Source of the DNA: Alphaproteobacteria bacterium
Lineage (GTDB): Bacteria; Pseudomonadota; Alphaproteobacteria; UBA9219
NCBI GenBank assembly: GCA_028683655.1
Contig: JAQUHK010000002.1
Coordinates: 996-64,995 of the forward strand
DNA length: 64,000 nt
Reading direction: 5' to 3'
In this document: one piece after another, positions 12,801 to 29,821 of the stretch
Layout of the letters: each line of letters starts with the position of its first letter
Position numbering within the stretch: position 1 is the stretch's first letter
Made by a program: the position numbers and the translations under genes
The notes under the pieces: generated by a model
Databases searched by the model: none
What the model was told of the DNA's origin: nothing
Seen by the model: the letters and a program-made list of their open reading frames with translations, nothing else

Positions 12801-12876
12801 TGTTGAGAACGAGTCCTTCAAACGCTTTGTCAGCGACATGGTCTTTGGGATAACAAACGAGGCTCGGCCAACTTGA
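9862..12876 (+). CDS. hsdR: Type I restriction enzyme R subunit HsdR (ResIII/SF2 helicase)
   Basis: Walker A HSAGSGKSNS; DEAH-like VIDEAHSSQ; motif III FTATP; QTLSRLNR motif VI. ATGA overlap with the darG stop. Confidence 0.9.
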   Translation: MTTDTSEKGLETLIIRHMTGLDGIGVAPNQVAEQPNASGTGYHAGSPKDFDRTHILDVPQLFAFLRATQLAAFEKLGIANADDPKDITRLQLLARLSSEIGKRGVIDVIRKGIEHGPVHFDLFYATPSEGNVKAQELHAKNRFSITRQVGYSLDEARRALDLCLFINGLPISTFELKNSLTKQTVEDAVEQYRRDRDPRELLFGFGRCVVHFAVDDSEVRMCTELKGKASWFLPFNKGYNDGAGNPPNSTGLKTDYLWKEILHPQRLTEILENYAQIVEIKNEKTGRKKRVQIFPRYHQLRVVRKTLADVQANGVGKRYLIQHSAGSGKSNSIAWLSHQLIGVKRNDKEVFGSVIVVTDRTILDDQIQKTIKQFLQVGAIVGHAEHSGDLRKFITEGKKIIVSTVQKFPFILDEISAVGGKTFAIVIDEAHSSQGGKTSTAMSRALSNPTTEEEVDPEDTVNEALEKRIAGRRMLTNASYFAFTATPKNKTLEMFGEALPPDSEGKVKHTPFDSYTMKQAIEERFILDVLKAYTPVDSYYKLIKRIEDDPEFDAKRANKKLRKFVETHDHAIRLKAEIMVDHFHNQVIASGKIGGQARAMIITNGIERAIQYYHAVKDYLVERKSPYQAIVAFSGEPEYKGIKVSEASLNGFSSNDIADRIQNDPYRFLICANKFQTGYDEPLLHTMYVDKPLAGIQAVQTLSRLNRAHPQKHDCFVLDFQNNSESITLAFQDYYRTTILSEETDPNKLHDLKAALDDAQVYSPQQIETFVSLFLAGAERDKLDPILDVCVATYSEALDEDQQVDFKGKAKMFTRTYDFLASVMPYTNSEWERLSILLNLLVPKLPAPKEQDLSKGILEAIDMDSYRVEKKAVMKLALENKDASIAPIPLDNRGGRAEPELDRLSNIIHSFNENFGTLFTDSDRVVKRIREDIVPQVAADIAYQNAKQNTPHTARMAHDQALNRVMQALLKDDTHVYKQFVENESFKRFVSDMVFGITNEARPT

Positions 12877-13139
12877 TAACTCTTAGCTCCATATAAAATT
12901 GATACGTTTGCCTTTAGAAGTTTTTCTAAAGAGGTGGGTGCGATTAAAATCTTCCTACGTTACCAATATCTGGCAACTTCCTACCTGTAAGTGGTAGATT
13001 AGCGCTTTTTAAACCATTGTTTTTCCTAATAGTTTCATGCGCTGGCTGGTACAATGCCTTCATTGGATTTTGCGTGATGGCTACGGATTTTAGTTAACAA
13101 ATAGTGAAAGCATTTTGACTTAACACATAAGGAGGAGAT

Positions 13140-13619
13140 ATGTTGGGAATAGCTTTTTTAGATTTCAGACCCCTTTCAATTCCAACGATTGACTGGGGCA
13201 AAAAGGTTCGGAGCTTTTTGAACGTGACCGAGAGTCCTCGCTTCACATATGTCATGTCTGTAATAACTACAGAAGATGATATGCGCGAGCCCACTAGTTT
13301 GGGAATGATTTATCGTGACGAATTGCTCGGCAAGACCTATAGCGCTGACAGCCTCCTTTTTGAGAAAAAAGGGAATACCCATAAATCTCTTTGCTCAGCA
13401 CTAGAAGTTGAACGTCCTGAACAGCTTAAAGCTAAAATGACCCGGGCTGCCTTTAAGAAAGCTGGATTGAAGCCGCTTGGTATTGACGTTGAAAATGATT
13501 TTGTTTCCTTCCTGAAGGAAACAGCCGAAAAGGCAGGGATCGTTTTCATAGATCGTAGGGCACGGACAGCTACTAATGGAATGTCGCCGAATGGCATTCC
13601 TGTATGCGCACTCGTCTAA
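13140..13619 (+). CDS. Hypothetical protein (159 aa)
   Basis: Good RBS taaggaggagat before the ATG; no recognisable domain. Confidence 0.45.
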   Translation: MLGIAFLDFRPLSIPTIDWGKKVRSFLNVTESPRFTYVMSVITTEDDMREPTSLGMIYRDELLGKTYSADSLLFEKKGNTHKSLCSALEVERPEQLKAKMTRAAFKKAGLKPLGIDVENDFVSFLKETAEKAGIVFIDRRARTATNGMSPNGIPVCALV

Positions 13620-13992: not shown

Positions 13993-14517
13993 TTAAGCAA
14001 TCTTAAGCCGTTCAAGAGCACTAGGGGGGATAAGCCGTTCAAGATAACAAATTGGGGCTGATGATCCATCGGCAAAAAGGGCAATTGTTTTACTTTTAAT
14101 AATTGCCCCTCTACGAACATGGGCCTGTAGCCACTTCGTATAGTCCTCACGAATTGTAAACACAGATAAATGCTGCCCGTGAGAAAGAGCCCAGTTGTCA
14201 AGCATAGCAAGAAATACGCTTACCGCTTTTGATCCCCTGTAATTGGGATACACATAGGCCTCGCCATATCGGACCGTCATTTCGTCAACCTTATTTGCCG
14301 TCATCGCACCGACAAGAGATTCCCCTGAAAACGACCCTACAATTACATGGTTTGGCGTTTCCTTGCAGCGGGCCCCCCATTCGCTCATTGTACAGACCAG
14401 TTCCGTTTTGGGATTGCCTGTCGAATAACGGCTGTCAGGTCCCGTTAGCGCGATTGTGCGAAGCTGTTTATATTTCGCCGCGTCATTTTCATCCAGAAAA
14501 CGGAAAGTCATACTCAT
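13993..14517 (-). CDS. GNAT-family N-acetyltransferase (putative)
   Basis: VYPNYRGSKAVSVFLAMLDNWAL resembles GNAT motif A (R/Q-x-x-G-x-G/A). Confidence 0.5.
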   Translation of the reverse strand: MSMTFRFLDENDAAKYKQLRTIALTGPDSRYSTGNPKTELVCTMSEWGARCKETPNHVIVGSFSGESLVGAMTANKVDEMTVRYGEAYVYPNYRGSKAVSVFLAMLDNWALSHGQHLSVFTIREDYTKWLQAHVRRGAIIKSKTIALFADGSSAPICYLERLIPPSALERLKIA

Positions 14518-15158
14518 TCAACAATCTCCGCTTCTTTCCATGCCGCATCAAAAGCAAATCTATACGCTGCCGCAAATGGACCTGCTTTGTGAAGGACAAC
14601 ATAGGGGGGGGTCTGGTGATCGAAAGAAATAAGTGCCAGATTATCGCCATAGGCATAGAAAGAGACGTCAGGCATTCCAATAATTTTTTTCTGTCGTCGT
14701 AAATCAGCCCACGTTCGTTTGAAGTTACCATCGGCTGCCAAAATCCGACCTCGTATCTTGCCTGTCTTTGCAAGATCAAGCATTTTCTTGCGATAAGCTT
14801 CTATGTTCTTAACAGCTTTTTGAAACGCACACTCGTTTGTAATGGATGCAAAAACATCCCCACCAAATTGTTCGAGGTAAGCTTCAACCTGTATTAAGAA
14901 ATCATTAAACCTATCTCGCCCTTCAAAAATCTCAACACCGATCGGTGCGCGACGAACGCCTTCATTTTCGATAAACTCAACACCAGCGTTACGAAAAGCC
15001 ACTGCTATTTTTTCAATCGTTTCTCTCTTCGGCGAGCTTTCTTCATTTTCAATATAGTGGATCGCTGCTGTGCTTAATCCACTATGCTTCGCGAGATCAC
15101 TACGATCCCAACCTAAAAGGACACGCGCTGCCCGAATTTGCTTGCCTGAAACGTGCAT
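14514..15158 (-). CDS. XRE-family HTH transcriptional regulator with C-terminal unknown domain (paralog family member)
   Basis: N-term QIRAARVLLGWDRSDLAKHSGLSTAAIHYIENE shares its pattern with 15983, 17444, 29168 and 53523. Confidence 0.65.
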   Translation of the reverse strand: MHVSGKQIRAARVLLGWDRSDLAKHSGLSTAAIHYIENEESSPKRETIEKIAVAFRNAGVEFIENEGVRRAPIGVEIFEGRDRFNDFLIQVEAYLEQFGGDVFASITNECAFQKAVKNIEAYRKKMLDLAKTGKIRGRILAADGNFKRTWADLRRQKKIIGMPDVSFYAYGDNLALISFDHQTPPYVVLHKAGPFAAAYRFAFDAAWKEAEIVE

Positions 15159-15982: not shown

Positions 15983-16672
15983 ATGAACACCGTGACCGCC
16001 GAACAGATTAGAGGGGCGCGATCCATGCAAAAATGGACACGCGAGGAAATGGCCGAGGCATCGGGGCTGTCTCGCAATACCATTTGCAATTTGGAATCCG
16101 GCGATCTTATTCCGCGCGGCAAGACGCTTGAGAAACTGTGCCAGGCCATGAAAGAGGTCGGGCTTGAGTTTACTGATGGCGGCGTTCGTCGCATAAGAAT
16201 GGATGTTGCGCTAATAGAAGGGGAAGACAGCGTTGACATTTTCCTCGACCTTCTTTTGAGCAAGGCAAAGAGCAAGGGGGGAGAAATCATCGGCATTTTT
16301 CCAACTCAAAAAGTTATGATGAAATCCCTTGGCATTGAAAACGGAAATTTTGAGCGTCTCAAAAAGATTCTGGTTCATGCCGATATGAAGGTTCTGTTAC
16401 GGGAAGCTGACGCGCCACAGTTCTTGCTCGACAAATTCCAGTACAAAATTGCACATGAAAGCTGCAATTGCGCCATGTCGTATTTTGTTTTTGATAATAG
16501 CTTTGCGATGGTGTTCCACGGCAACCGAGTACAATATAAGTACGCTGTTTTTAACAACACAGAAACAGCTATAGGAAACAGGATATATTTCAGTGGTGCG
16601 TGGATTGCTGCATCCTTCCGTCAAGCTTCGCGCCCCGTTCAACATAAGAAAGAAGAGCGTGCCCGCGCATAA
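15983..16672 (+). CDS. XRE-family HTH regulator paralog (229 aa)
   Basis: EQIRGARSMQKWTREEMAEASGLSRNTICNLESGD HTH motif; same family as 14514..15158 and 29168..29821. Confidence 0.65.
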   Translation: MNTVTAEQIRGARSMQKWTREEMAEASGLSRNTICNLESGDLIPRGKTLEKLCQAMKEVGLEFTDGGVRRIRMDVALIEGEDSVDIFLDLLLSKAKSKGGEIIGIFPTQKVMMKSLGIENGNFERLKKILVHADMKVLLREADAPQFLLDKFQYKIAHESCNCAMSYFVFDNSFAMVFHGNRVQYKYAVFNNTETAIGNRIYFSGAWIAASFRQASRPVQHKKEERARA

Positions 16673-17443: not shown

Positions 17444-17770
17444 ATGATTTCTCGACAGCCTATCCCTAGACAAATCAAAGCCGCACGGGCATTGCTGAGT
17501 TGGACACGCAAGGATCTTGGCAACGAATCCGGCATGTGCGCAGAAACGATCAAAAACATCGAATATGGCGTCTCTTCGCCAAAGAAAGAAACACTAGCGG
17601 CGCTTGTCGATGCCTTCGCCCGTCATGGCGTTCAATTTGTTCACTATGAGACGCTTACCGGCGGTCCAACGGAGAGGGCCTCGAAGTGCTCATTGAAAGT
17701 CATTTCTTATGTTGGCGCGGTTCATCTCACTGTTACCGCACCTGAAATCATGGAGGAAGATCATGATTAA
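17444..17770 (+). CDS. Short XRE-family HTH regulator (108 aa), same paralog family
   Basis: RQIKAARALLSWTRKDLGNESGMCAETIKNIEYG. Confidence 0.6.
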   Translation: MISRQPIPRQIKAARALLSWTRKDLGNESGMCAETIKNIEYGVSSPKKETLAALVDAFARHGVQFVHYETLTGGPTERASKCSLKVISYVGAVHLTVTAPEIMEEDHD

Positions 17771-18035
17771 CTGCATGCACCCAAGTCGCATTCTCGATCA
17801 AATCACCACCGCAACAGATAAACGGTTTGAGCTTGTCGCGTGTATTGCTGACGCAATAGTTGAAACGACAATGGAGGTCGGTTACTGCGCGCAGGTAACT
17901 CTCATAGACAAAGGCTTCACGCATCAAGATGTAGCATATCTCTGGCATTTTGCCTGTGCGCTTGCTGACGTTGAACTTAAGTGCAGCAAGAACGGCATTT
18001 GTTCCCCTTTCGAGAAGGGGGTGCGCTATGCATAA
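17763..18035 (+). CDS. Hypothetical protein (90 aa)
   Basis: ATG at 17763 preceded by ggaggaag; overlaps neighbouring genes by a few nt. Confidence 0.35.
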   Translation: MINCMHPSRILDQITTATDKRFELVACIADAIVETTMEVGYCAQVTLIDKGFTHQDVAYLWHFACALADVELKCSKNGICSPFEKGVRYA

Positions 18036-18315
18036 AACGAAAGCTTGCTCGTCCCCTGCCTACATTAAGAAAGAGAGAATATCAAAACCAACAGAGAAAC
18101 TAACGCATAGAGAAGTCGAAATTTTGACTTGGAGCGCGAGAGGCAAGACACGCTCGGAAATATCCATCATACTGTCACTTTCTGAAGAAACAGTCAAAGA
18201 TCATTTAGCAAGAATCCTTCGGAAGCTGGGAGCAGTTAATAAAGTGCATGCTGTTTCAATAGCGTGTGTTCTAGGACTGATTGTGCCCTATCAAGAAAGC
18301 AACTTGAACGAGTGA
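18028..18315 (+). CDS. LuxR/GerE-type HTH transcriptional regulator (DNA-binding domain only)
   Basis: LTHREVEILTWSARGKTRSEISIILSLSEETVKDHLARILRKLGAVNKVHAV matches the GerE HTH. Confidence 0.65.
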   Translation: MHKTKACSSPAYIKKERISKPTEKLTHREVEILTWSARGKTRSEISIILSLSEETVKDHLARILRKLGAVNKVHAVSIACVLGLIVPYQESNLNE

Positions 18316-18533: not shown

Positions 18534-19589
18534 GTGCTTAGTGGTGCTCAAAAAGAAGTAGACGTGGCTAATCAACCGATTATAACGCCTTGTAATGCTT
18601 GGAAGAACAAGGAATTCTACCTTAAAAATCTTTTGCAAGACCCTTGGTACGCCTTCACTTCAAAACTTCTGAGTGCAATCTACGTGGCAACACACGATTT
18701 CTTTGAAAAGAAATCTATCAAGCCTTTTGTTTTCCCGATTACAACGGGCTCTGTCAGCAGCCCCATGGGCATGGGAAGTGATTCTCTTCCTGTTCAGATA
18801 TCACTGAGGGGCAATGATGTCTTCCTAGCCGATTCCATGCAGTTTTCGCTTGAAGTCGGAACTAGGCTTAATCGAGATGGAGCGTACTATGTTATGCCAA
18901 CCTTTCGTGGGGAATCTGTTGATTCACGTCACTTAAATGAATTTGTTCACGCCGAAGTTGAGATTCCCGGAGTGCTTAATGACGTTCAAGATCTGGCTGA
19001 AGGCTATATCCGCCACCTCGTGGCTTACTTGCTCGAAAACTGTGAAAAGGAAGTAGCAGAAATTGCTGGAGACATTGATCATCTTCTTCTCTTGTCGGCG
19101 CGACGCGATCCTTTCACAAAAATTTCCTACAGCGATGCGATACAGGAAATTTTATCCGTGGATGGTGCGCTAGAAGATATTGGCACTGGGTTCTCCAACA
19201 TCACAGCTCTTGGTGAGAAAGCCCTTATGCGCAAACATGGCGACTTCATCTGGTTAACTCATATGCCATGGAGAAATGTGCCGTTTTATCAAGCACAATT
19301 GCAGGGCACCGCCTATTCGATGACGGGTGACCTTCTTGCCGGAATAGGGGAAATTCTTGGATGCGGGCAGCGTGTTGGCTCGCTAGCAGATCTTGAAGAG
19401 TCCCTGCGGGTTCACAATGTTAGCGCAGCGGGTTATGAGTGGTATGCTGAAATGCGTGATCTTTGCCCTATGCAAACCTCTGGCTTTGGCCTTGGAATTG
19501 AGCGATTTCTGCTTTGGGCAACACAAACAAATGATATCCGGAATTGCAGCCTCCTGTATCGTGATCACAACCAGATCTTTTACCCATAA
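18534..19589 (+). CDS. Class II (subclass IIb) aminoacyl-tRNA synthetase catalytic-core paralog / AsnA-like amino-acid ligase, no anticodon-binding domain
   Basis: Motif 2-like PTFRGESVDSRHLNEFVHAEVE (fRxE); motif 3-like SGFGLGIERFLLWAT. GTG start 6 nt after AGGAGG. Length 351 aa is a catalytic core only. Confidence 0.6.
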   Translation: MLSGAQKEVDVANQPIITPCNAWKNKEFYLKNLLQDPWYAFTSKLLSAIYVATHDFFEKKSIKPFVFPITTGSVSSPMGMGSDSLPVQISLRGNDVFLADSMQFSLEVGTRLNRDGAYYVMPTFRGESVDSRHLNEFVHAEVEIPGVLNDVQDLAEGYIRHLVAYLLENCEKEVAEIAGDIDHLLLLSARRDPFTKISYSDAIQEILSVDGALEDIGTGFSNITALGEKALMRKHGDFIWLTHMPWRNVPFYQAQLQGTAYSMTGDLLAGIGEILGCGQRVGSLADLEESLRVHNVSAAGYEWYAEMRDLCPMQTSGFGLGIERFLLWATQTNDIRNCSLLYRDHNQIFYP

Positions 19590-19620: not shown

Positions 19621-20505
19621 ATGACTCTAGATATTGCATGGCCAAGCAGAGAAAAAAAAGATCGCGCTCGCGAAACAGTGGAATATTTCAATCCGAAAGC
19701 TAAAGATTATGACAAGACGGATGAACAGAGCTATTGGGTTTTTTCTGATCGACTCTTGTGGAGGTTGTTAAACGACCATATTTTGAGCGATTTGGCAAAA
19801 ATTAAGCCGTCATTTTCTCTTCTCGACGCAGGCTGTGGCACAGCGCGCTGGTCGTCAAAGATTTTAGAGGCTTACCCACAAAGTAGTGCAACTCTTCTGG
19901 ACATTACGCCAAACATGCTCGAAGTTTCTAAACAGAAACTTGAGAGCATGGGGCTTTCGTCACGAGCTGTATTGAAGCAACTGGATCTGAATGATTTAGA
20001 AGGCTTTCCGTTAAATCCACACGATTTGGCAATTTGTTTTCACAACGTGCTAAGTTTTGTTGTTGATCCTGCGGCAGTCATTCGAAGCCTTGTGAATAAA
20101 ATCAACGGTGGAGGAACGATATGTCTTGTTATTCCCAATCTTTTCCATGCCGTAAGTTTCAGCGCATCACTCGGGCGAATGATTGAGGTTAAGAGAGCCA
20201 TGAAGTCCTGCGCCGTCAAGTTTACAGATGAGGTTCCTGAGATGTGGGTATTCTCACCTGACAAAATCAAGAAAATCTTTGCATCTGCCGGTGTTTTGGA
20301 CTGCAGCGTCTTTGGCTTTCCCGTAACAGTATACCCACAGTTCGAAGAGACACAAATTGTAGGCAACAGCTCAAACAACAGCAAGCTTTTTGCAAATGAT
20401 GCTGCCGTTCAAACGTTGTTCGAAACTGAGCTGGTTTTATCAAACCAGCAAGAAGCGGCAGCACGTGGAAACAATCTGTTGGTAATTGCAAGAAAAGCAA
20501 CGTGA
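19621..20505 (+). CDS. Class I SAM-dependent methyltransferase
   Basis: LLDAGCGTARWS motif I (G-x-G-x-G). Confidence 0.7.
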   Translation: MTLDIAWPSREKKDRARETVEYFNPKAKDYDKTDEQSYWVFSDRLLWRLLNDHILSDLAKIKPSFSLLDAGCGTARWSSKILEAYPQSSATLLDITPNMLEVSKQKLESMGLSSRAVLKQLDLNDLEGFPLNPHDLAICFHNVLSFVVDPAAVIRSLVNKINGGGTICLVIPNLFHAVSFSASLGRMIEVKRAMKSCAVKFTDEVPEMWVFSPDKIKKIFASAGVLDCSVFGFPVTVYPQFEETQIVGNSSNNSKLFANDAAVQTLFETELVLSNQQEAAARGNNLLVIARKAT

Positions 20506-20569: not shown

Positions 20570-21859
20570 ATGCAGGCCAAAGATTTTTCGGATAGCTGCG
20601 CTCGTATTCGAGACGCCTTTATCCAGTCATTTCAAGATGCTCAGTTTGTCAATTTCGGCGTTAAGCCTCTAGTTCCGGAAGCTGATCAAAGCGTCATTTT
20701 TGTCGGTGCCTCTATTTCTGCTTTCAAACCATTCTTAACCAACCAATTGGTCTTTAACCAGAAATTCGATAACATGGTGCTTGTGCAACCATGTTTGCGT
20801 TTACACAATCTCAATAACCTTCTGAAGACACCTGTTCTTCAATACTACAGTTATTTCAATATGCTTGGCGCACTATGTCAACCATCTGCCGAAAAGCTAA
20901 CGATTGATGCCCTTGTCCGTTTCGTGGGTCAAATAATGACGAAAGGCATCATTAGAGCAAGCCGTCAGGAAACACCTTATTACTCAATATTCAATAATGC
21001 ATTCTCTATTGAACTTGACACACGTCCACCAGAATATTACAGCTGGATTTTTGGCACCAAAGAGTACATTGGGAAAGGCGTGACTCTTGCTCTTTCTAAC
21101 CACAACAAGAACTTCTGGCAGTTTAGCGTCAAAGATATTAGCAAGCCAGGTGCTGCTGCCTTGCCAGAAAACTTTGGAACAGGATTTCAGGATGTAGGCA
21201 ACCTTATCCGCCTATATGACCATAGTGGTCGACATATTGCGTCCGAAATTGGGCTTGGAATTGAAACAATTCATCAAGCTCAAAGTAATTGTGCGAGCCA
21301 GGTTGAAAGCTATGCGTACAAATCCATTCTTGAAAAGGTGTGTTCTAACGCCAGCGACCATTTTGTCGACTCAGCTGTTACATCGACAATCATCGTACAA
21401 GCAGGCGTGCGCGACGAAAATTCAAAAAGGGGTCAGCTTCTGAACAAAGCTGTGCGTAATACCGTATACACGGGATTAATAGAAGGGATGAATTTGGATC
21501 AAATAACGCGATCCACAGACACCTTGAATCAATTTTTAGGTGGCTCCCCATCAAACGCTGAAGACGTGCGCAAAATTGTAGAAAAGCAGTACTATGCTGC
21601 GATAAAGAATATTACAAATCTTGGCAGAGTTTTATCATCACCGCCCTCATCTGGGCGCGATGAGCATAGCCGAAAAAAGCTTGTAAAAAAAGTAATGAAC
21701 CTTGCTGATGGTGAATACTATATTCCGGATGTTGTGAGGGATCATCTTTTAAGCCAAAAAGGTCTGGTTGATCCTAGTCAGAATGGAGCTACTCCCTATC
21801 GCCCGCTTGACAGGCTGTTCCAGTTCATTCAGTCCAATCCTGCGCCAATTATGTGCTAA
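20570..21859 (+). CDS. Divergent alanyl-tRNA-synthetase catalytic-domain-like protein (paralog of 23076..24380)
   Basis: PLVPEADQSVIFVGASISAFKPFL and VQPCLRLHNLNN...YFNMLGA parallel AlaRS SLVPxNDPTLLFTNAGMxxFK and QxCxRxxxxHNDxxNVG...TFFEMLGN. The GDTGPCGPC block is absent. Confidence 0.45.
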   Translation: MQAKDFSDSCARIRDAFIQSFQDAQFVNFGVKPLVPEADQSVIFVGASISAFKPFLTNQLVFNQKFDNMVLVQPCLRLHNLNNLLKTPVLQYYSYFNMLGALCQPSAEKLTIDALVRFVGQIMTKGIIRASRQETPYYSIFNNAFSIELDTRPPEYYSWIFGTKEYIGKGVTLALSNHNKNFWQFSVKDISKPGAAALPENFGTGFQDVGNLIRLYDHSGRHIASEIGLGIETIHQAQSNCASQVESYAYKSILEKVCSNASDHFVDSAVTSTIIVQAGVRDENSKRGQLLNKAVRNTVYTGLIEGMNLDQITRSTDTLNQFLGGSPSNAEDVRKIVEKQYYAAIKNITNLGRVLSSPPSSGRDEHSRKKLVKKVMNLADGEYYIPDVVRDHLLSQKGLVDPSQNGATPYRPLDRLFQFIQSNPAPIMC

Positions 21860-21874
21860 AACGGGAGATATAAG

Positions 21875-22942
21875 ATGTCAGTGCTATTGAAAAATTTGGT
21901 TCGTCCGCGATGCCTTCAAGCCGGTGACTTAGTTGCTGCTGTAAGCTTATCTTGGGGTGGAGCTGCGATTTTTCCTCACCGGTATGAAACGGGCAAAAGT
22001 CAGTTTGAGCAGGCTTATGGCATCCGCGTGGTTGAGATGAAACATACGCTTAAATCTCCTGCGTGGATTGCTCAAAATCCGGCAGCAAGAGCCGATGACT
22101 TAATGGAGGCCTTCACAAATCCCGAAATATCAGGAATCGTGTCTGTCATTGGTGGCGATGATTCAGTGCTTATTTTGCCCTATTTGGATATAGGGGTAAT
22201 CGAGAAGAATCCGAAGCTATTTGTCGGTTATTCGGATACAACGGTAACTCATTTTGCTTGTTTAAAAGCTGGTGTGACAAGTTTTTACGGCCCCAGCATT
22301 ATGGCAGGATTTGCTGAAAATGCGGGTTTGCATAGTTATATGCGTCATTCTATCGAGAAAACCATGTTTTCACCTGAACCCGTCGGAACCATTATGCCAG
22401 CACAGGGCTGGACTACCGAACATCTTGACTGGGCCAGTCCTGAAAATCAAAAGCAGGCGCGAAAGATGAATCCTAATACAGGCTGGGTGTGCTTGCAAGG
22501 CACAGGCCGCACACAAGGTCGCTTGATTGGCGGGTGTGTAAGTACAATGCAGATGATTGAGGATACAAACATATGGCCAGAGCTTGATGTTTGGCGCGAC
22601 GGAATTCTTTTCTGCGAAGTCTCTGAGGAACTATCGTCAGCAGATGACTTCAAATTATGGCTACGCCATATGGGAGAAAAAGGCATATTGCAGGTTCTTA
22701 ACGGCATTCTCTTTGGGCGTCCCAGTGGACAAACGCCAAAAGCCGATTGGCATTTGTTTGACGAGGCATTTCTTTCGGTGATCCGTGATGAGCTTTCCCT
22801 GACAAGCCTTGCCATACTCTCACATCTGGATTTTGGCCATACGGACCCTATGTTTGTATTACCCTACGGTGTCATGGCCGAAATTGACTGTGACAAAACC
22901 TCGCTTGCTATACTTGAAAAAGCTGTGTTACCAAGGAGTTAG
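21875..22942 (+). CDS. Peptidase S66 family (LD-carboxypeptidase LdcA / microcin C immunity MccF-like)
   Basis: KLFVGYSDTTVTHFACLKAG contains the S66 GYSD catalytic-serine motif. Confidence 0.65.
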   Translation: MSVLLKNLVRPRCLQAGDLVAAVSLSWGGAAIFPHRYETGKSQFEQAYGIRVVEMKHTLKSPAWIAQNPAARADDLMEAFTNPEISGIVSVIGGDDSVLILPYLDIGVIEKNPKLFVGYSDTTVTHFACLKAGVTSFYGPSIMAGFAENAGLHSYMRHSIEKTMFSPEPVGTIMPAQGWTTEHLDWASPENQKQARKMNPNTGWVCLQGTGRTQGRLIGGCVSTMQMIEDTNIWPELDVWRDGILFCEVSEELSSADDFKLWLRHMGEKGILQVLNGILFGRPSGQTPKADWHLFDEAFLSVIRDELSLTSLAILSHLDFGHTDPMFVLPYGVMAEIDCDKTSLAILEKAVLPRS

Positions 22943-23075: not shown

Positions 23076-24380
23076 ATGACAACCACCACACAAATTATTC
23101 GTGAGCAATTTTTAGAGTTCTTTCAATCACGTGATCACATGATCATCCCTGGAGCCAGCCTAGTTCCCTCGAACGATCCAACTTTATTGCTGATAAATTC
23201 TGGCATGGCTCCTATCAAACCCTATTTTACAGCGGAAGCTGTGCCCATTAGCCCCCGCCTGTGCAATGTTCAAAAATGCATCCGCACTAATGACATTGAG
23301 GATGTCGGCGATCGTTCACATTTAACATTCTTTGAGATGCTTGGCAGCTGGTCGATTGGAGATTATTTTAAAGATGTCGCGGTAGAGCTTGCCGGAGATC
23401 TGCTGATGGGGAAGTTAAATATTCCTCAAAGTAAACTATATGCTACTGTCTATAAAGGAAACGACACAATTGGGCTAGCTTACGATGAAGAAAGCCATCG
23501 CGCATGGGAACGGTTGGGTTTCAAAAGCAATCAAATTGTTCCTCTTGGTGATGAAGATAATTTATGGGGGCCCGCTGGTGACACAGGGCCATGTGGACCA
23601 TGCACCGAGGTGTTCATTGATCTTGGCGACAAAACAGGTATTGGCAGCTATGAAGAAACTGGCATCTTTAACACACGCCGCTACATTGAGATTTGGAATG
23701 CTGGTGTCTTTATGCAGCTTAACAAAAATGCTGATGGCTCGTATGCCCCACTTCCATTTACCAGCGTGGACACAGGCGCAGGCCTAGAGCGTCTAACTAT
23801 GGCCATTAATGGCAATGAAAATGTGTATCAGGAGGAGCCGTACACATTACTTCTGACACAAATGCCTTCGGTTTTCTCGCAACATGAATGTCGTGTCGTT
23901 GCAGATCATGTGCGCGCCGCTTCACACCTTATTAGTGATGGTGTGTCGCCTGGGCGTAATGGCAGGGAATATATTACGCGACGCCTTATCCGTCGAATGG
24001 AAACAATCGCCGCATGTCATCGAACAAAGATTCCATATCCAGAACTGTTAAATGTCGTGCAGGCTAAAGACGGCAGAAATCACGAGGAATTTAAAAAAAG
24101 CGACGCCTTAATTAGAGAAGTTGTTGCGGCGGAAGTTGCCGTGTTTTCCCGCACACTGTCTTCAGGTCTTAAGGCATTCGATAAAGTTACCCGTAAGTTG
24201 AATGGATCAGCTGAATTGCCAAGCCAACATGCTTTCAACATCGTTACGGCTCATGGCTTTCCCTTAGAGGCCCTTGAACAAATTGCGACGACGCGTGGGC
24301 TGCGTATTGATCGACCAGGGGTGGAGCTTCTTATGGATCGACACAAAGCACTGTCACGCGGCGCGCCAAAACCAAAGTAA
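23076..24380 (+). CDS. Alanyl-tRNA synthetase N-terminal fragment-like protein (aminoacylation plus tRNA-recognition domains only; no editing or C-Ala domains), 434 aa
   Basis: Near-collinear match to the AlaRS N-terminus: LVPSNDPTLLLINSGMAPIKPYF, CIRTNDIEDVG, HLTFFEMLGSWSIGDYFK, GDTGPCGPCTEVF, RYIEIWNAGVFMQ, SVDTGAGLERL, RVVADHVRAASHLISDGV. Ends where the editing domain would begin. Confidence 0.8.
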   Translation: MTTTTQIIREQFLEFFQSRDHMIIPGASLVPSNDPTLLLINSGMAPIKPYFTAEAVPISPRLCNVQKCIRTNDIEDVGDRSHLTFFEMLGSWSIGDYFKDVAVELAGDLLMGKLNIPQSKLYATVYKGNDTIGLAYDEESHRAWERLGFKSNQIVPLGDEDNLWGPAGDTGPCGPCTEVFIDLGDKTGIGSYEETGIFNTRRYIEIWNAGVFMQLNKNADGSYAPLPFTSVDTGAGLERLTMAINGNENVYQEEPYTLLLTQMPSVFSQHECRVVADHVRAASHLISDGVSPGRNGREYITRRLIRRMETIAACHRTKIPYPELLNVVQAKDGRNHEEFKKSDALIREVVAAEVAVFSRTLSSGLKAFDKVTRKLNGSAELPSQHAFNIVTAHGFPLEALEQIATTRGLRIDRPGVELLMDRHKALSRGAPKPK

Positions 24381-24423: not shown

Positions 24424-24525
24424 TGAAAGGAGACGTGCTGGACAACACACCTTTCTCATTATCTGTTGCGCACGTCGGATCGAGTAATTAGGAAAGGTTG
24501 ATAGATGCTTCTAATTAGAAATCAA

Positions 24526-24942
24526 ATGAAGGCATTTAAGAACACACTGCTTCTTGTTCTAGTTGCACAGGCAATCGTCGGATGTCGCGGACAAGAAAAA
24601 AACGACAAGCGAAGCGATTTTATGAAGCAGTGCATTTCATTCAGAACGAATGACAAAATTCATTCAGTCGTGTTTAAGCAAGGGCAAGTCGTTATAACAA
24701 GAAGCTTTCTTGCACCGACTAGATTTGAAAGTTTTTACGTTTGTTTAAATGAACCACGCTGTGAGGATAAATTGGAATCTTGGCATTTGGGACCAGACAC
24801 GACGGGTCGTTTTGTGCGGCTTGTGAGTCCGAGCTCATTACCTACTCCTACGATGGTAAAGCGTGTGGACAAAACCGAGCCATTGCTGGCCAGAGGGAAC
24901 GCATTTCACGCCACGATTAAAGAGTGCGTAGCTTATGAATAG
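24526..24942 (+). CDS. Putative lipoprotein (about 138 aa)
   Basis: MKAFKNTLLLVLVAQAIVGC is a lipobox-like signal peptide (IVGC). Confidence 0.4.
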   Translation: MKAFKNTLLLVLVAQAIVGCRGQEKNDKRSDFMKQCISFRTNDKIHSVVFKQGQVVITRSFLAPTRFESFYVCLNEPRCEDKLESWHLGPDTTGRFVRLVSPSSLPTPTMVKRVDKTEPLLARGNAFHATIKECVAYE

Positions 24943-24964
24943 GCCACAAAAACAAAGGAACACG

Positions 24965-26065
24965 ATGAAAAAGATTCAACGTAACAAATATCTAGCCTAT
25001 GCGAGCAACTTGAAGCGGGAAGAAATTAAACAGATTGCAACCTATGTGCTGTGGCTTCCCGATCAAATCATCGACTGCCATGCACACTGCAATCTGGACA
25101 TACATGTTAAATCTTTGTCCCCAACTGTCTACAATCATATGATGTCAACCTTTCCAAGTTTTAATTTGGATGAATCTGAATCTTGGACAAAAGTCTTGCT
25201 GCCCGGCAAGGACGTTCAGCACCTCCGTTTTCCACATGCTTTTCCTGGCATTGATCACAGGGCTGCAAACACGTATCTCTTGGAAAACTCGCCCGACAAG
25301 GACTTGGTCGCGATCTATGGAATCCCCAATGATATTCCCTACACAATTGAAACGCTTAATCATCCTCGCGCTTCGGCTCTCAAAATGTACTATTTATATT
25401 TAGATCCTCCAGCGAAAGATGTATATCAATTTTTTCCAACACAGGTTTTGAAAGAGGCTGAGCGTTTAAAAAAGCCGATCATTTTGCATCTTCCGAGCCC
25501 GCTCCCTCAATGCGTTGATCAAGTCGAACGTTTAGCACAAGATTTTCCTGAGCTGAAGATTTGCCTCGCGCATTTGGGTGTTTGCGAAACAGTTACCTCT
25601 GAATTGGAATCGGCCTTTCGGAAGATCAGGCCCTATCCCAATATCAATATGGACACGGCACTTGTGCCCTCTTCTAAAGTTGTAAGTTTGGCCTACGATG
25701 TTTTGGGTTTGAAAAGGATCATGTATGGTTCGGATGCCCCCTTAAATCTCATCCGTTCAGTTTGGTATCAAAATCCAGAATTAGGAACCAGATTGGCAAC
25801 CGAATTCCCCTATCATTGGGCAAACCCATCAGAATACGTTAAATATAAACACCTAGCGCTGAATTCCATTCATGCTCAATGGACGGCCTTGGGGGCGATC
25901 CATTCCTTTTTTGATGGGAAGTGGGGTCCAGAACGCATTCAAGCTAAATTAGCCATTTTCCACAGCAACGCCAAAATATTTTTTGGTTTTCCTGATTATG
26001 AACCCACACGGCCTTGTAATACTATACCCAACCTGCAGAACAGCAACGAACAAACATTGAAATAA
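24965..26065 (+). CDS. Amidohydrolase-2 / TIM-barrel metal-dependent hydrolase family protein
   Basis: IIDCHAHC metal-binding start, internal HLPSP and LAHLG, late GSDAP motif. RBS aaggaac before the ATG at 24965. Confidence 0.5.
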   Translation: MKKIQRNKYLAYASNLKREEIKQIATYVLWLPDQIIDCHAHCNLDIHVKSLSPTVYNHMMSTFPSFNLDESESWTKVLLPGKDVQHLRFPHAFPGIDHRAANTYLLENSPDKDLVAIYGIPNDIPYTIETLNHPRASALKMYYLYLDPPAKDVYQFFPTQVLKEAERLKKPIILHLPSPLPQCVDQVERLAQDFPELKICLAHLGVCETVTSELESAFRKIRPYPNINMDTALVPSSKVVSLAYDVLGLKRIMYGSDAPLNLIRSVWYQNPELGTRLATEFPYHWANPSEYVKYKHLALNSIHAQWTALGAIHSFFDGKWGPERIQAKLAIFHSNAKIFFGFPDYEPTRPCNTIPNLQNSNEQTLK

Positions 26066-26082
26066 TCTTACAGGAGAACGAT

Positions 26083-27105
26083 ATGACAACCGTTAATTTA
26101 AGTATTCGTGATTTTGGTGACCATGCCTGTTTATTTATTCCTGTGCAGCGAGGCGTTCGTGTTCTGTGGGAACTGACCAAACGCTGCAATCTTGCATGCA
26201 AACATTGCTTCGTTCCTCCATATTCTAAGGAACGCGGTGATCTTTCTACGGCTCAATGCATCTCAATCATGGACAGTTTTCCTCAAGCTGAAGTCACACG
26301 CATTATATTCAGCGGCGGCGAACCTTTGACGAGGCGAGACATTCCAGAATTGATCCAAGCATCAAATGCGCGAGGCATTCAGGCCGCATTGTGCACAAAT
26401 GCGACACTTGTTACTGACTCTATTGCAAGAGATTTATATCGATCTGGACTTCGCGAAGCTTTCGTCAGCTTAGATGGTGCAACAGCTGAAGTTCATGACG
26501 GACAGAGGGGCCTTTCCGGCAGCTTTGACAGGACTATCAAAGGGATCAAAACGCTTAAGTATAATGGTCTGACCGTTGATATCTCCTGTATTCCGACAAA
26601 GCTAAACATCCATGACTTGCAAGAACTTCCCCGACTATGCAGTTCGCTTGGCTGTTCATCAATAACTTTCGGGGGATGGTTTCCTAAGCAAAACATGCGC
26701 GGCACTGGCGGTGATCTGACGCCTGACGCTCAATCAATGACTAAGTTCCTTCACTCATTCCGAGAGGTCGGTGAGAAAGCCAACATGCCTATGCACACGA
26801 GCAGGCTTGTTCCTCACGCGCCGCTTGAAGCTTGTCCCGCTGGCGTATCTATCATTGGGATAGATGCCAGTGGCCACTACCACCCATGTCTCAATATTCC
26901 TACAACGCATTCCGAAATTACCGATGCGCTGAAGGCATCAATCACAGAAATCCTGAAGAGATTTAAAAAGATACCCGAACTGCCTACGTGCGCAAAAAAT
27001 TGCCCTAGCGGCGAAGAATGCTTTGGCGGCTGCCCAGCGGATAAAATCAATGGGGTAGATAGGGTATGCTCACAAAAAGGATTAGTTTCTTTACAAATTA
27101 GGTAG
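26083..27105 (+). CDS. Radical SAM enzyme with C-terminal SPASM-like Cys-rich domain
   Basis: CNLACKHC (CxxxCxxC) with downstream FSGGEPL. C-terminal CPAGVS...HYHPC...CAKNCPSGEECFGGC cysteine cluster. Confidence 0.8.
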   Translation: MTTVNLSIRDFGDHACLFIPVQRGVRVLWELTKRCNLACKHCFVPPYSKERGDLSTAQCISIMDSFPQAEVTRIIFSGGEPLTRRDIPELIQASNARGIQAALCTNATLVTDSIARDLYRSGLREAFVSLDGATAEVHDGQRGLSGSFDRTIKGIKTLKYNGLTVDISCIPTKLNIHDLQELPRLCSSLGCSSITFGGWFPKQNMRGTGGDLTPDAQSMTKFLHSFREVGEKANMPMHTSRLVPHAPLEACPAGVSIIGIDASGHYHPCLNIPTTHSEITDALKASITEILKRFKKIPELPTCAKNCPSGEECFGGCPADKINGVDRVCSQKGLVSLQIR

Positions 27106-27405: not shown

Positions 27406-27861
27406 TTAGATTTGGCCAGAATTTGCCTTAATAAGTCCAAGAAGAGCCGTAACACTGCTAAGCATCAATTTGGCGTCGCCTTCGGTGATTTCGTCAAGGA
27501 CGCTCCAATCATGCGCTTCGCGCAGACCTGCGACGGTGTCGATGACATGCTCAATATTTTGGCACTCATCGGGGGTTGAGCCGATATTGCGGGTGCTTTT
27601 CACAAACCTCTCGAAGACTTTGATAGAAGTGATGGCGGCAGCATTGTCATTATTGGCCGTATGCTGAGGGAGCTGTTTTTCTGTTGCCCGTTCTGCCTCA
27701 CAGCCGAGACTCGCCATATAGCCCGCGGCAATGCTGTCCGAAGCCCGATAAGCCAATCGTTCTGCTTCGCCATATTGTGCGGCTGTAAGCAACTCTCGCG
27801 CTTGCCGTAGCTGTTCCGTTGCTTGATCGAATAGGGTTTGGCTGTGCGCTGTCATCATCAT
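27406..27861 (-). CDS. Conserved island-backbone hypothetical protein (151 aa), helical
   Basis: Paralog at 51800..52201 (MMMTAHSQTLFDQATEQLR vs MMMNSHSQTLFDQATEQLR). Shared REAHDWS motif. Confidence 0.5.
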   Translation of the reverse strand: MMMTAHSQTLFDQATEQLRQARELLTAAQYGEAERLAYRASDSIAAGYMASLGCEAERATEKQLPQHTANNDNAAAITSIKVFERFVKSTRNIGSTPDECQNIEHVIDTVAGLREAHDWSVLDEITEGDAKLMLSSVTALLGLIKANSGQI

Positions 27862-29090
27862 GCCGCCAGTGAAAAAATCGGGTCATGTCTTGCCGCATCG
27901 GGACTGATAAGTTTAAGGGGCCGTGACGGCGCATTATGTTTTTGCGCCGCCTTGCGCAAGTCAAGGCTTGCCGTTTGCATCGGACGATTACCTAGCACAC
28001 GCTCTTTTCCGCCGATGGCTTTGATTGCGGCGGCAATCTCCGGCTCCTCCAAAACATGGATGTGCATCGGCGGTGTCATGACAGGTTCTCGACGTTTAGG
28101 GGCTAACAGAATGATGTTCTGGGCATCGAACAGGGCCGCAAAAACCTCTCGCACACTCCCGTCACAGGGGATTTGAGGACTTGGCGCGCTTTGGACAAGG
28201 CCGCCCCAGCTACGCTCGCCAATCTCTTGATCCGCTGCTTTGAGTATAGACGACACCACACATTCCAAAACACCTGCATTCGGCAGGCTGCCGTTGCTGA
28301 TAAACTGGCATTGCGTTACAGGCGTTCCCTTAAAGGTAGAAAGACCCTTGGTAAAGCTAGCCATCACCTTTTGCTTCGCATTCGGGCTTTCCCAACTCAC
28401 AACAAAGTTATTGGGATCAATCGTTCCGTCAGCCATCCGCACAAACTGGACATCCACGGGTACTTTGAATCTATCTTCAAGCCCATGCACGCTCTCAATC
28501 TTGAAAAGTGCACTCTCTTCATCCTTACCGAGATGCGCTCCCAACTTTTCTTGGATCGTGACAATACTTCTATTGTCCGGCGCAAACTCGAATATCTCAC
28601 CGACAGGTACACTGCCATCCTTGAACCCATGCGTTGCGTAGTAATCAATGCTGGCTTGAATAAGAGAGTGGCCGAGCCCGCCCTCTGGACGCCTCTTTGC
28701 ATATGGCTTCTCAAGAATTATCTTCTTCATCTCGGAAGGCAGAATGCATACATCCTCGCTATAAATCCCGCGATGAACATCGATGTCATTTCCGTTTCTT
28801 TGCAAAAAGAGTGAACGGAAATTGATCGTCGCACCAACAATCTTTGGATCGCAAGTATCCCATGCAGTGGCAAAGAATAACACTTCAACGTCGCCTGCAG
28901 ACATGACTTTCATGGCGCGTCGGAAACCAACAGCGTCAAATGTCGCTCCATGGATTTTGGCTTCATGTTGAATCGAGTCGCGCAGAATGCCGCTCAACGC
29001 ACAATTGTGGAGGATGTCTTTCTCGTTCTGGGGCAACACGGCGACGTTGAGTCCGCCCATGAGCTGTTGAAAGTTTTTTGTTTCAATCAT
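27858..29090 (-). CDS. Conserved island-backbone hypothetical protein (410 aa)
   Basis: About 75% identical paralog at 52198..53445. No recognisable catalytic motif. Confidence 0.55.
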   Translation of the reverse strand: MIETKNFQQLMGGLNVAVLPQNEKDILHNCALSGILRDSIQHEAKIHGATFDAVGFRRAMKVMSAGDVEVLFFATAWDTCDPKIVGATINFRSLFLQRNGNDIDVHRGIYSEDVCILPSEMKKIILEKPYAKRRPEGGLGHSLIQASIDYYATHGFKDGSVPVGEIFEFAPDNRSIVTIQEKLGAHLGKDEESALFKIESVHGLEDRFKVPVDVQFVRMADGTIDPNNFVVSWESPNAKQKVMASFTKGLSTFKGTPVTQCQFISNGSLPNAGVLECVVSSILKAADQEIGERSWGGLVQSAPSPQIPCDGSVREVFAALFDAQNIILLAPKRREPVMTPPMHIHVLEEPEIAAAIKAIGGKERVLGNRPMQTASLDLRKAAQKHNAPSRPLKLISPDAARHDPIFSLAA

Positions 29091-29167: not shown

Positions 29168-29821
29168 TTACTTTCGTTTCTTTTTGGGCAGGCCGGAGCT
29201 TTTTGCCCAGAAAGCATCGAACTCACGAAGGTAACGCTGGGCGACCTGCTTGGAATAGATGGTTACGCATTCGCGTTTGGAGGCGTTATCTGTCAGCGGG
29301 ATAACGACATAGTCCCCATAAAGGTACCACGGGGCCACATCCTTAAACTCGTCATCAAGGAGCTTATAGCTGCAATAGCTGAGCGGTGCCCCCAGCTCAC
29401 CTTCTTGCACAAGAACCTTGGCATCCAGCCCTTCGATGGCTTCCATGCGTGCAATATGTTCGGCGGCATAATCGTCGGCAATCGGCATATAACGCGCATC
29501 CCCGAAATTGAACTGGCGAATACGACCACCTTTGCGCACAGTTTCGTAAATATGGTCGAGAAGCTGGCGATACCCAGTTTTTCCGCTGTAGGTACGCATC
29601 TGGTGCTTGCGGACACAAACGCCTTCATTCTCGGTAAACTCGATCCCTTCCTGATCCAAAACAGTCAGGATACGCGCTAGCGTTCTTTCTTGGGGCTGCA
29701 CGGTTTCATTTTCAATCTGGCGGATCGTCAGGCGCGTCAGCTCGCACTGATCGGCCAATTCTTCCATCGACCAACCGAGAAGCCCACGTGCGCCCCGTAT
29801 CTGTCTGCCTGTAATGCTCAT
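29168..29821 (-). CDS. XRE-family HTH regulator with C-terminal unknown domain (217 aa)
   Basis: MSITGRQIRGARGLLGWSMEELADQCELTRLTIRQIENE. Near-identical copy at 53523..54176. Confidence 0.7.
   Translation of the reverse strand: MSITGRQIRGARGLLGWSMEELADQCELTRLTIRQIENETVQPQERTLARILTVLDQEGIEFTENEGVCVRKHQMRTYSGKTGYRQLLDHIYETVRKGGRIRQFNFGDARYMPIADDYAAEHIARMEAIEGLDAKVLVQEGELGAPLSYCSYKLLDDEFKDVAPWYLYGDYVVIPLTDNASKRECVTIYSKQVAQRYLREFDAFWAKSSGLPKKKRK

Follow-up and report, generated by a model that had tools for sequence, protein, structure and literature searches.

Within a 64,000-nucleotide stretch of DNA from an alphaproteobacterial metagenome-assembled genome (MAG), referred to as a whole as the window, we investigated the gene at positions 20570-21859, which encodes a divergent relative of alanyl-tRNA synthetase (AlaRS) that we call ALX. 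The reading we favour, at about even confidence, is that ALX is an Ala-tRNA-dependent alanyl transferase in an agrocin-like cassette and helps to make an alanyl-adenylate mimic that inhibits AlaRS. Four features of the protein and its relatives point to an amide-forming transferase that depends on tRNA: the AlaRS motif-3 arginine has been lost, the tRNA-recognition domain has been kept, some family members are fused to anticodon-binding domains, and there is a precedent in AcmF of the ascamycin pathway. The tRNA dependence of ALX, its acceptor, its product and its target are matters that we infer. The cassette comprises five genes:

18534-19589, + strand: AgnA-like truncated AsnRS/AsnA-type class II enzyme, 351 amino acids (aa), without an anticodon-binding domain
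19621-20505, + strand: class I S-adenosylmethionine (SAM)-dependent methyltransferase, 294 aa (Pfam Methyltransf_31/25/12/11)
20570-21859, + strand: ALX, divergent AlaRS-like protein, 429 aa (Pfam, phmmer, hhalign, AlphaFold2, Foldseek)
21875-22942, + strand: S66 serine peptidase of the MccF clade, 355 aa (Pfam Peptidase_S66 and S66C)
23076-24380, + strand: truncated AlaRS (AlaRS434), 434 aa, with aminoacylation and tRNA-recognition domains only

The ALX gene starts with an ATG preceded by GGGGGAAG, and its product is labelled by NCBI as an 'alanine--tRNA ligase-related protein' of an alphaproteobacterial MAG. The Pfam model tRNA-synt_2c (PF01411) matched ALX with an E-value of 7.3e-12 over residues 13-100 only (profile positions 2-90 of 552), BLASTP gave 24% identity over 90 aa to the neighbouring AlaRS paralogue, and phmmer matched AlaRS in the PDB with E 3e-4. 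Since BLASTP and phmmer cover only about the first 100 residues of ALX, profile and structure methods were needed for the remainder. When a family profile built from 81 relatives was aligned with an AlaRS alignment by hhalign, the two matched with a probability of 99.9% (E 1.5e-31) over 366 columns, with ALX residues 9-397 corresponding to E. coli AlaRS 4-416. An AlphaFold2 model made with 81 family sequences (pLDDT 92.6, pTM 0.92), which replaced an earlier run with 4 sequences (pLDDT 67.9), was used for a Foldseek search of the PDB. The best 27 matches were all AlaRS (1riq at E 2.7e-14; TM 0.62-0.68; about 445 columns), and the alignments spanned the full length of ALX, taking in the helical tRNA-recognition domain as well as the aminoacylation domain. 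No Pfam match to the editing domain (tRNA_SAD) or to the C-Ala/DHHA1 domain was found in the 429-aa protein. Against TIGR00344 (alaS) ALX scored 37 bits, and since the cut-off is 457 bits it is not an AlaRS. These data revealed that ALX is an AlaRS-derived protein with a heavily remodelled AlaRS core. A preliminary description, made from the sequence alone, had called it a highly divergent homologue of the AlaRS catalytic domain, and the results bear this out; an unrelated fold was looked for by both profile and structure, and both returned the AlaRS fold. Comparison with the orthologous locus L001 showed that ALX is 64% identical between the two, as against 78-82% for its four cassette neighbours, with dN values of 0.26 and 0.11-0.14, respectively (dS was saturated). 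ALX is under purifying selection, yet it is changing about twice as fast as the four neighbours.

We examined the residues that distinguish ALX from a synthetase by mapping ALX onto E. coli AlaRS and counting the residues found in 151 representatives of its family. The three AlaRS-like blocks recognized in the preliminary description, PLVPEADQSVIFVGASISAFKP, QPCLRLHNLNN and YFNMLGA, are indeed present in ALX, and the AlaRS signature GDTGPCGPC is, as it had also reported, absent. The positions of interest are as follows:

R77: E. coli R69, the motif-2 Arg; kept in 151 of 151
F96: E. coli F90; kept in 150 of 151
W159: E. coli W170; Trp in 106 and His in 45
D208: E. coli E209
G210: E. coli W211
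N211: E. coli N212; Asn in 133 and Gln in 18
E226: E. coli D235; Glu in 135 and Asp in 2
G228 and G230: E. coli G237 and G239
T233: position of the AlaRS motif-3 Arg; Arg is not among the five commonest residues
GTKEYIGKG: position of AlaRS GDTGPCGPC

The motif-3 Arg is needed for ATP binding in class II synthetases. At this position the commonest residues of the family include Thr (110), Val (10) and Ser (8). The predicted active site of ALX combines a retained R77 with replacement of the motif-3 Arg by T233 and of D235 by E226. In addition, the hairpin that leads from N212 to D235 has 8-9 residues fewer than its AlaRS counterpart. The portion of the protein expected to meet tRNA is better preserved: the ALX segment SKRGQLLNKAVRN aligns with the acceptor-stem helix NRGYVLRRIIRR of the AlaRS tRNA-recognition domain, and both this basic helix and a YYIP motif (YGFP in AlaRS) are conserved among the closer relatives of ALX. 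We also observed a 24-residue insertion, FWQFSVKDISKPGAAALPENFGTGF, at about residues 181-205, which lies beside the active-site strands and is modelled with a pLDDT of about 68. It occurs only in the window protein and in the family members P0002 and P0003, and is absent from P0004 and the remaining family.

A protein altered in much the same way is already known. This is AcmF, from the ascamycin pathway of Streptomyces sp. 80H647 (Zheng et al., ACS Catal 2024), which resembles an AlaRS cut down to its aminoacylation and tRNA-recognition domains (PMC12945691). It carries the changes D232E and N219Q, is without the residues for ATP and alanine activation, and needs E232 (PMC12945691). Its acceptor is dealanylascamycin, a 5'-O-sulfamoyl adenosine, on whose sulfamate NH2 it places an alanyl group taken from Ala-tRNA(Ala), with R93, E216, Q219 and E232 holding the acceptor and the alanyl group; AcmD, the AlaRS of the cluster, supplies the Ala-tRNA(Ala) and shows greater resistance to the product, and the alanine can be taken off again by the hydrolase AcmE (PMC12945691). 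Our comparison of ALX with AcmF rests on the published description and residue numbers of the latter. ALX is truncated to the same two domains, has Glu (E226) at the Asp235 position, and its R77, D208, N211 and E226 correspond to R93, E216, Q219 and E232 of AcmF. The spacing between Q219 and E232 of AcmF is 13, that between the equivalent positions is 14-15 in the ALX family, and in AlaRS it is 23-24.

The family to which ALX belongs was exposed by an exhaustive profile search; a word-indexed search with the family alignment had given mainly canonical AlaRS. Close relatives are few, with just four found among 5.8 billion clustered proteins, but the profile search returned 712 representatives (clusters at 50% identity) at E<=1e-3 and 253 at E<=1e-10. 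The best 150 of the 712 are all 218-520 aa long, and none is a full-length AlaRS. ALX is a member of a large unnamed family of short AlaRS-like proteins. Among 20 members with source names 18 are metagenomic, and the names given to these proteins are 'hypothetical protein'; besides MAGs, the family is carried by cultured Peribacillus, Exiguobacterium, Serratia, Pectobacterium and Actinoallomurus. Three members carry an additional tRNA-binding domain, which is HGTP_anticodon in one case and FDX-ACB in the other two. A search from a high-GC subgroup of the family returned proteins of Actinoallomurus, Serratia and Pectobacterium, and no AcmF.

The genes around ALX suggest a pathway in which such a transferase could act. 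The AgnA-like enzyme matches Pfam tRNA-synt_2 (E 5e-32) and NCBIfam asparagine synthetase A (E 2e-62, under the cut-off), has intact motif 2 (FRGE) and motif 3 (GLGIER), and in a tblastn search of plasmids shared 40.6% identity over 340 aa (E 8e-100) with AgnA, the 'Agrocin84-synthetase' of pAgK84 (CP000632.1). AgnA is a truncated AsnRS proposed to make the phosphoramide bond of agrocin 84 (PMC8323819, PMC4392301). The best NCBIfam matches of the methyltransferase are the carboxyl-O-methyltransferases CmoM, BioC and Tam, all far under their cut-offs, and its orthologues in the related loci L001, L003 and L005 are 51-82% identical. The S66 peptidase is 28.7% identical over 349 aa (E 6e-43) to AgnC5, the 'MccF-like protein' of pAgK84, and in the PDB it matches B. 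anthracis BA3275 (E 5e-99) and MccF 3tla (E 5e-32) far better than LdcA (just 1e-5 to 1e-7); its Ser120 (in GYSD), Glu248 and His322, together with Trp186, are invariant in 8 cluster-linked S66 proteins. AlaRS434 matches tRNA-synt_2c with E 3.9e-113 (profile positions 2-430 of 552) and an E. coli AlaRS fragment in the PDB with E 1e-76, carries GDTGPCGPC, and retains R69, W170, E209, N212, D235, G237 and R242. It is truncated but has its catalytic residues complete, and the truncated AlaRSs of L001, L008 and L011 share 47-82% identity with it. AlaRS434 and its cluster-linked relatives have PGRNG where a typical AlaRS has PSNEG, and T/S where Asp is typical (R294/N295 and T391 in AlaRS434). These are presumably the positions of E. 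coli N303 and D400, which read the G3:U70 pair. Altered tRNA use by AlaRS434 was considered on this account and dropped, since the full-length AlaRS P0167 and P0168 vary similarly.

Fifteen independent loci with an ALX member were compared (the window, L001, L003, L004, L005, L007, L008, L010, L011, L014, L017, L018, L019, L020 and L022). Since several contigs are short, the partner counts are lower bounds: a methyltransferase, not always orthologous, was found in 12 of the 15, an S66 peptidase in 10, a spare AlaRS (434-445 aa, or 595 aa in Firmicutes) in 9, an AgnA-like enzyme in 7 and a pair of dCTP-deaminase-like genes in 6. Besides the window, the AgnA-like gene neighbours ALX in L001, L003, L005, L010, L014 and L020. 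The gene set recurs with ALX relatives 22-28% identical to the target, from alphaproteobacterial MAGs to plasmids of two cultured Firmicutes, Peribacillus psychrosaccharolyticus FDAARGOS_1161 (NZ_CP068052.1) and Exiguobacterium sp. Helios (NZ_CP053558.1). The partners accompany ALX over wide evolutionary distances: between loci, identity is 25-29% for ALX, 39-80% for the AgnA-like enzyme, 30-77% for S66 and 34-82% for the truncated AlaRS. The contig of L010 encodes, besides the truncated AlaRS, a full AlaRS of 882 aa at a distance of 4 kb from the cassette, so the truncated form is an extra copy there; in the window AlaRS434 lies in the operon, and a housekeeping alaS is not within the window. 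Two AlaRS-derived paralogues had been described earlier as standing side by side, a pairing said to be unusual. The second gene is present, but it is one gene away from ALX with the S66 gene between them, and the pairing is recurrent among the loci and has a published precedent in AcmD and AcmF (PMC12945691).

The alternative that ALX is a non-catalytic AlaRS decoy, binding the alanyl-adenylate mimic or tRNA(Ala) and thereby protecting the producer or regulating the pathway, draws on the loss of adenylation residues from a protein that keeps its fold and ligand-site residues, and on its roughly twofold faster evolution. We consider this very improbable. Although the 151 representatives share just 17-28% identity overall, Q73, R77 and G230 are invariant among them, and C75, D39, K53, F96 and E226 are nearly so. 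Moreover, ALX occurs in loci that have no spare AlaRS or S66 peptidase, beside biosynthetic genes, and the window cassette already holds two candidate immunity genes.

The locus most informative about tRNA is L005, which encodes the family member P0005 (10001-11563), the nearest outgroup to the clade of the target (E 1.5e-74). Immediately downstream of P0005, where other loci have AlaRS, is a full ThrRS (11632-13581), and then come an AgnA-like enzyme, an S66 peptidase and a pair of methyltransferases. P0005 is longer at its C-terminus by 120 residues, which share 59% identity (E 9e-43) with the anticodon-binding domain of the adjacent ThrRS, and this domain looks like a recent capture from that neighbour. 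Since such a capture would otherwise be hard to explain, it suggests that P0005 acts on the tRNA charged by the adjacent ThrRS. A stand-alone LPG_synthase_C protein is encoded 2 kb upstream of P0005 (L005 8000-8959); this domain is aminoacyl-tRNA-dependent in MprF-type enzymes. In L003 a full-length ArgRS (11384-13192) follows the ALX homologue P0003 on the same strand, with no S66 peptidase and no spare AlaRS. It may be a housekeeping neighbour or mark an arginine version of the system, and the pocket residues are no different. A second type of cassette (L008 8944-18900; L011 303-7689; L017; L018; L019; L022) is without the AgnA-like gene and combines ALX with two tandem dCTP-deaminase-like genes and cytidine-deaminase-like and phosphoribosyltransferase-like genes, joined in some loci by a histidine phosphatase, a nucleoside diphosphate kinase (NDK) or a sulfotransferase. 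The deaminase and phosphoribosyltransferase gene content suggests a pyrimidine-nucleotide acceptor in this type. L022, from Serratia marcescens, has in addition two ATP-grasp enzymes of the L-amino-acid-ligase type and a major facilitator superfamily (MFS) pump.

These observations can be assembled into a mechanism. ALX would no longer activate alanine with ATP but would bind Ala-tRNA(Ala) charged by AlaRS434, which, by analogy with AcmD and AgnB2, may be a toxin-insensitive copy. The AgnA-like enzyme and the methyltransferase would build a nucleotide with a free NH2, and ALX would form an N-alanyl bond on this amino group, the acceptor occupying the former AMP site as it does in AcmF. Our preferred guess for the acceptor is an adenosine 5'-phosphoramidate, which might carry an O-methyl group as phosmidosine does and would correspond, with phosphorus, to the sulfamate accepted by AcmF. 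The product would be a mimic of Ala-AMP that inhibits AlaRS. The S66 peptidase would cleave the aminoacyl-N bond of the product, either for self-protection or for processing, a reaction known for MccF. MccF cuts the amide bond that joins the aminoacyl group to the phosphoramidate nitrogen of an adenylate analogue. The preliminary description had proposed repurposing to a different substrate or reaction, such as amide or phosphoramidate bond formation. A repurposed AlaRS paralogue that probably forms an amide (N-acyl) bond agrees with the first part of this proposal, but re-targeted adenylation is less likely, and formation of the phosphoramidate (P-N) bond is more plausibly assigned to the AgnA-like enzyme (18534-19589) than to ALX.

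A tRNA-dependent transferase could also act on a different acceptor. ALX might alanylate the alpha-amino group of an Asp or Asn adenylate analogue that is made by the AgnA-like enzyme and resembles processed microcin C; alanine would then be a removable carrier or protecting group that does not determine specificity, and the product a dipeptidyl-nucleotide pro-drug or a self-protected intermediate. The AsnRS/AsnA type of the AgnA-like enzyme is consistent with this, as is the removal by MccF of the aspartate of processed microcin C (PMC8323819). The nearest named relatives of the methyltransferase, though the matches are weak, are carboxyl methyltransferases, and ATP-grasp amino-acid ligases occur in some related loci, suggesting peptide decoration. 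However, the spare synthetase varies by cluster (AlaRS, ThrRS, LeuRS or MetRS), which argues that the aminoacyl group defines the target enzyme, as in the case of AgnB2 and agrocin 84; no spare AspRS or AsnRS is present, and compared with the acceptor of AcmF such a molecule would probably fit the AMP site poorly. On balance we find this version improbable.

Several observations weigh against an alanyl transferase that depends on tRNA and acts on a phosphoramidate. The acceptor is entirely hypothetical. L003, L019 and L022 have neither a spare AlaRS nor an S66 peptidase. ALX has N211 where AcmF has Gln, and in the motif-2 loop the R93-F104 spacing of AcmF is 11, compared with 19-20 here; no AcmF-like motif-2 spacing was found among the best 150 ALX representatives, and with its shorter loop AcmF may be a separate lineage. 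The amino-acid pocket residues are alike in the ThrRS-linked P0005, the ArgRS-adjacent P0003 and the Ala-linked members. Finally, the motif-2 Arg, F96 and D208 are retained in ALX, so some nucleotide binding, and perhaps use of ATP, is possible, and Firmicute members retain the motif-3 Arg (that of Peribacillus retains Asp235 too), so part of the family may still adenylate. The last two points favour a further explanation, close to the idea of the preliminary description, that ALX is a tRNA-independent ligase. It would still bind ATP, activate alanine or some other small acid as the adenylate and hand it directly to an acceptor with an amine or amide group, in the manner of AsnA-type and other aaRS-like amide synthetases, and the spare AlaRS would serve as an immunity copy only. 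Conservation of R77, F96, D208 and N211 fits such a ligase, as does the Firmicutes' motif-3 Arg in the same cassette, and AgnA itself has been proposed to be an aaRS-like enzyme that works without tRNA (PMC8323819). We nevertheless judge it unlikely: the motif-3 Arg is lost in the target's branch and in most of the family, D235 has become Glu and GDTGPCGPC has been replaced, yet the tRNA-recognition domain and its basic helix are conserved and anticodon-binding fusions occur, one of them derived from the adjacent ThrRS. AcmF, similarly changed, needs Ala-tRNA (PMC12945691).

The wider surroundings of the cassette were surveyed for regulators, accessory genes and other systems. The features of the window outside the five genes are:

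2367-4688: hsdM of a type I restriction-modification (R-M) system
4685-6787: GmrSD gene inserted among the type I R-M genes
6784-8136: type I R-M hsdS
9832-12876: type I R-M hsdR
17950-18315, + strand: LuxR-type helix-turn-helix (HTH) protein, a possible regulator, with a C-terminal HTH EVEILTWSARGKTRSEISIILSLSEETVKDHLARILRKLG, directly upstream of the cassette
24505-24942, + strand: lipoprotein-like protein, possible accessory (Pfam/NCBIfam)
24935-26065, + strand: Amidohydro_2 protein, possible accessory (Pfam/NCBIfam)
26083-27105, + strand: radical SAM/SPASM protein, possible accessory (Pfam/NCBIfam)
36195-38522, - strand: open reading frame (ORF) of 36% GC with matches to Ppl/Gabija-like ATPases
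39098-41377, - strand: PDC-S06
41398-44466, - strand: helicase-endonuclease
45532-47463, - strand: DNA methylase
48154-51426, - strand: SNF2 helicase

The cassette has a GC content of 44-46%, the adjoining core 52-54%, and the region is a mosaic rich in restriction and defence genes. Orthologous cassettes are found on plasmids, next to integrases or ParB/RepB, and in chromosomal settings that have nothing in common, and the cassette is therefore considered horizontally mobile. To judge from the sequence, in the window it is situated in a defence island. This raises the idea of an anti-phage defence module, in which the cassette would make a toxic aminoacyl-nucleotide inside the cell on infection. 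The composition of the island (type I R-M, GmrSD, PDC-S06, the Gabija/Ppl-like ATPase and more R-M genes) accords with it, and related loci adjoin integrases, ParB/RepB and dCTP-deaminase-like genes. However, no PADLOC model matches the five cassette proteins save for a generic methyltransferase-domain match of the methyltransferase to mad2 (E 5.5e-12), and the homology to agrocin 84 production genes and the MFS exporters of related loci fit a secreted antibiotic. We give the defence explanation very little credence.

Membership of the three accessory genes (24505-27105) in the cassette is uncertain, and L001, the orthologous locus, does not have them. The radical SAM protein has generic matches to AhbD/NirJ, mycofactocin maturase and viperin models. 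The cassette is flanked by four XRE-type HTH paralogues, each about 210-230 aa long and sharing the N-terminal motif 'QIRxARxLLxW', at 14514-15158 (- strand), 15983-16672 (+), about 17447-17770 (+) and 29168-29821 (-). Full-length homologues of these lie by related cassettes (L005 7374-8000 and L008 4527-5186; 27-30% identical, E 1e-20 to 1e-29), and the proteins may accompany the cassette as regulators or belong to a mobile element. A 410-aa ORF at 27858-29090 (- strand), between the accessory genes and the fourth XRE paralogue, gave no Pfam, NCBIfam or PADLOC match. An Rfam scan found no riboswitch and no T-box, tRNA-Val being the sole match, and sites in a promoter and terminator scan were no commoner than in shuffled sequence.

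The most potent inhibitors of synthetases include natural mimics of aminoacyl-adenylates such as agrocin 84, microcin C, ascamycin and albomycin. Transferases like AcmF and clusters of the agrocin type have both been published; neither a search of a full-text library nor two reviews showed the combination of the two, an alanine/AlaRS version, the capture of a ThrRS domain or the size of the family. The locus thereby joins two threads that have been reviewed separately, namely the logic of AgnA, MccF-like peptidase and spare synthetase in agrocin 84 and the use of charged tRNA by an AcmF-type synthetase paralogue. If the alanyl transferase reading is correct, the cassette would be a minimal five-gene system for N-acyl phosphoramidate assembly; a new AlaRS-targeting antibiotic and a ThrRS-targeting relative would be predicted, several hundred 'hypothetical' proteins on plasmids and islands of cultured bacteria and in MAGs would gain a function, and tRNA specificity would have been rewired by capture of a neighbouring synthetase's anticodon-binding domain. 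More tentatively, and with the chances in our view against it, the short AlaRS-like family, of at least 712 sequence clusters, might be a general and so far unrecognised class of aminoacyl-tRNA-dependent N-acyl transferases that place an amino-acid 'address' on nucleotide antibiotics, the cassette making an alanyl-phosphoramidate adenylate that poisons AlaRS. Warheads of the agrocin 84 type would in that event be built from charged tRNA on an AgnA-made phosphoramidate, and an exchange of synthetase and tRNA-binding domain, such as the ThrRS variant suggests, could give them a new amino-acid specificity.

Among known systems, the cassette is related to the agrocin 84 cluster of pAgK84 in Rhizobium rhizogenes K84 (Kim et al. 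2006; PMC8323819), whose product is an N-acyl phosphoramidate mimic of an aminoacyl-adenylate. The agn operon runs agnA, a SAM methyltransferase, agnB2 (LeuRS), agnC1 (hypothetical), and further on agnC5 and agnC7 (radical SAM). Both clusters have an AgnA homologue with a methyltransferase straight after it, an MccF-like homologue, a synthetase gene in the operon (for the LeuRS AgnB2 there, for AlaRS434, a putative second copy, here) and a class II aaRS-like protein (AgnC1, reported as remotely ProRS-like, there; the AlaRS-derived protein here). AgnB2 is an agrocin-resistant immunity copy, and the assembly pathway of agrocin 84 is unsolved (PMC8323819, PMC4392301); in actinobacterial agn-like clusters a MetRS takes the place of the LeuRS (PMC8323819). 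The differences are that the window is without homologues of AgnC1, C2, C4, C6, D, E, F and G, and so lacks genes for pentanamide and sugar-phosphate tailoring (BLAST with AgnC1, C2, C4 and C6 gave no match in the window), that its methyltransferase is not detectably orthologous to AgnB1, and that its spare synthetase is a truncated AlaRS. AgnC1 was ruled out as a homologue of ALX (hhalign probability 0.5%). The radical SAM protein of the window is 30% identical to AgnC7 over 187 aa, but orthology is unsupported, since AgnC7 is not among its best plasmid matches and the similarity is generic. We also noticed on the Xenorhabdus bovienii CS03 megaplasmid (L015; NZ_FO818638.1, 8929-17579) an apparent agrocin-like cluster, absent from the agrocin review, in a symbiont that is an insect pathogen. 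Its genes encode an AgnA-like enzyme, a methyltransferase, an S66 peptidase, a nucleoside phosphorylase, VOC and GloA proteins, an MFS pump, a LeuRS and a protein related to class IIa aaRSs, and next to it lies a XyeAB triceptide cluster, which encodes a ribosomally synthesized and post-translationally modified peptide (RiPP). A common pattern emerges, of an AgnA-like enzyme, a methyltransferase, an MccF-like peptidase, a spare synthetase and a synthetase-like protein, and the window would be its alanine version, with an AlaRS-derived protein in the place of AgnC1.

With the microcin C system the window shares only the peptidase, which possesses the Ser/Glu/His triad and resembles MccF and MccF-like structures far more than it does LdcA, although its best structural relative, B. 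anthracis BA3275, is deposited as an 'MccC family protein' with no functional name. The cluster lacks the MccA peptide, MccB (ThiF-like) and MccD/E, and a Pfam scan of its ORFs found no MccB (ThiF/E1-like) or MccA domains. Relative to canonical AlaRS (EC 6.1.1.7), ALX keeps the fold, the order of domains in the N-terminal 440 residues and the equivalents of R69, F90, W170, N212, G237, G239 and E241, but it is without the editing and C-Ala domains, GDTGPCGPC, W211 and the motif-3 Arg, and has Glu for D235. SbzA, of the SB-203208 pathway, is an IleRS-like aminoacyl-tRNA-dependent transferase that acts on a sulfonamide NH2 and yields an aaRS inhibitor (PMC12945691, PMC6331615). It resembles the proposed ALX as a synthetase paralogue repurposed to shift an amino acid from aminoacyl-tRNA onto an NH2, but has a class I fold and a scaffold that is not a nucleotide. 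The ascamycin cluster offers the closest parallel to the proposed division of labour. ALX, AlaRS434 and the S66 peptidase correspond to AcmF, AcmD and AcmE as transferase, spare AlaRS and hydrolase, although AcmE is an alpha/beta-hydrolase that is not homologous to the S66 peptidase. The acceptor genes are of the sulfamate/nucleocidin type in ascamycin and are the AgnA-like enzyme and methyltransferase in the window, and the hosts are a Streptomyces and an alphaproteobacterial MAG, respectively.

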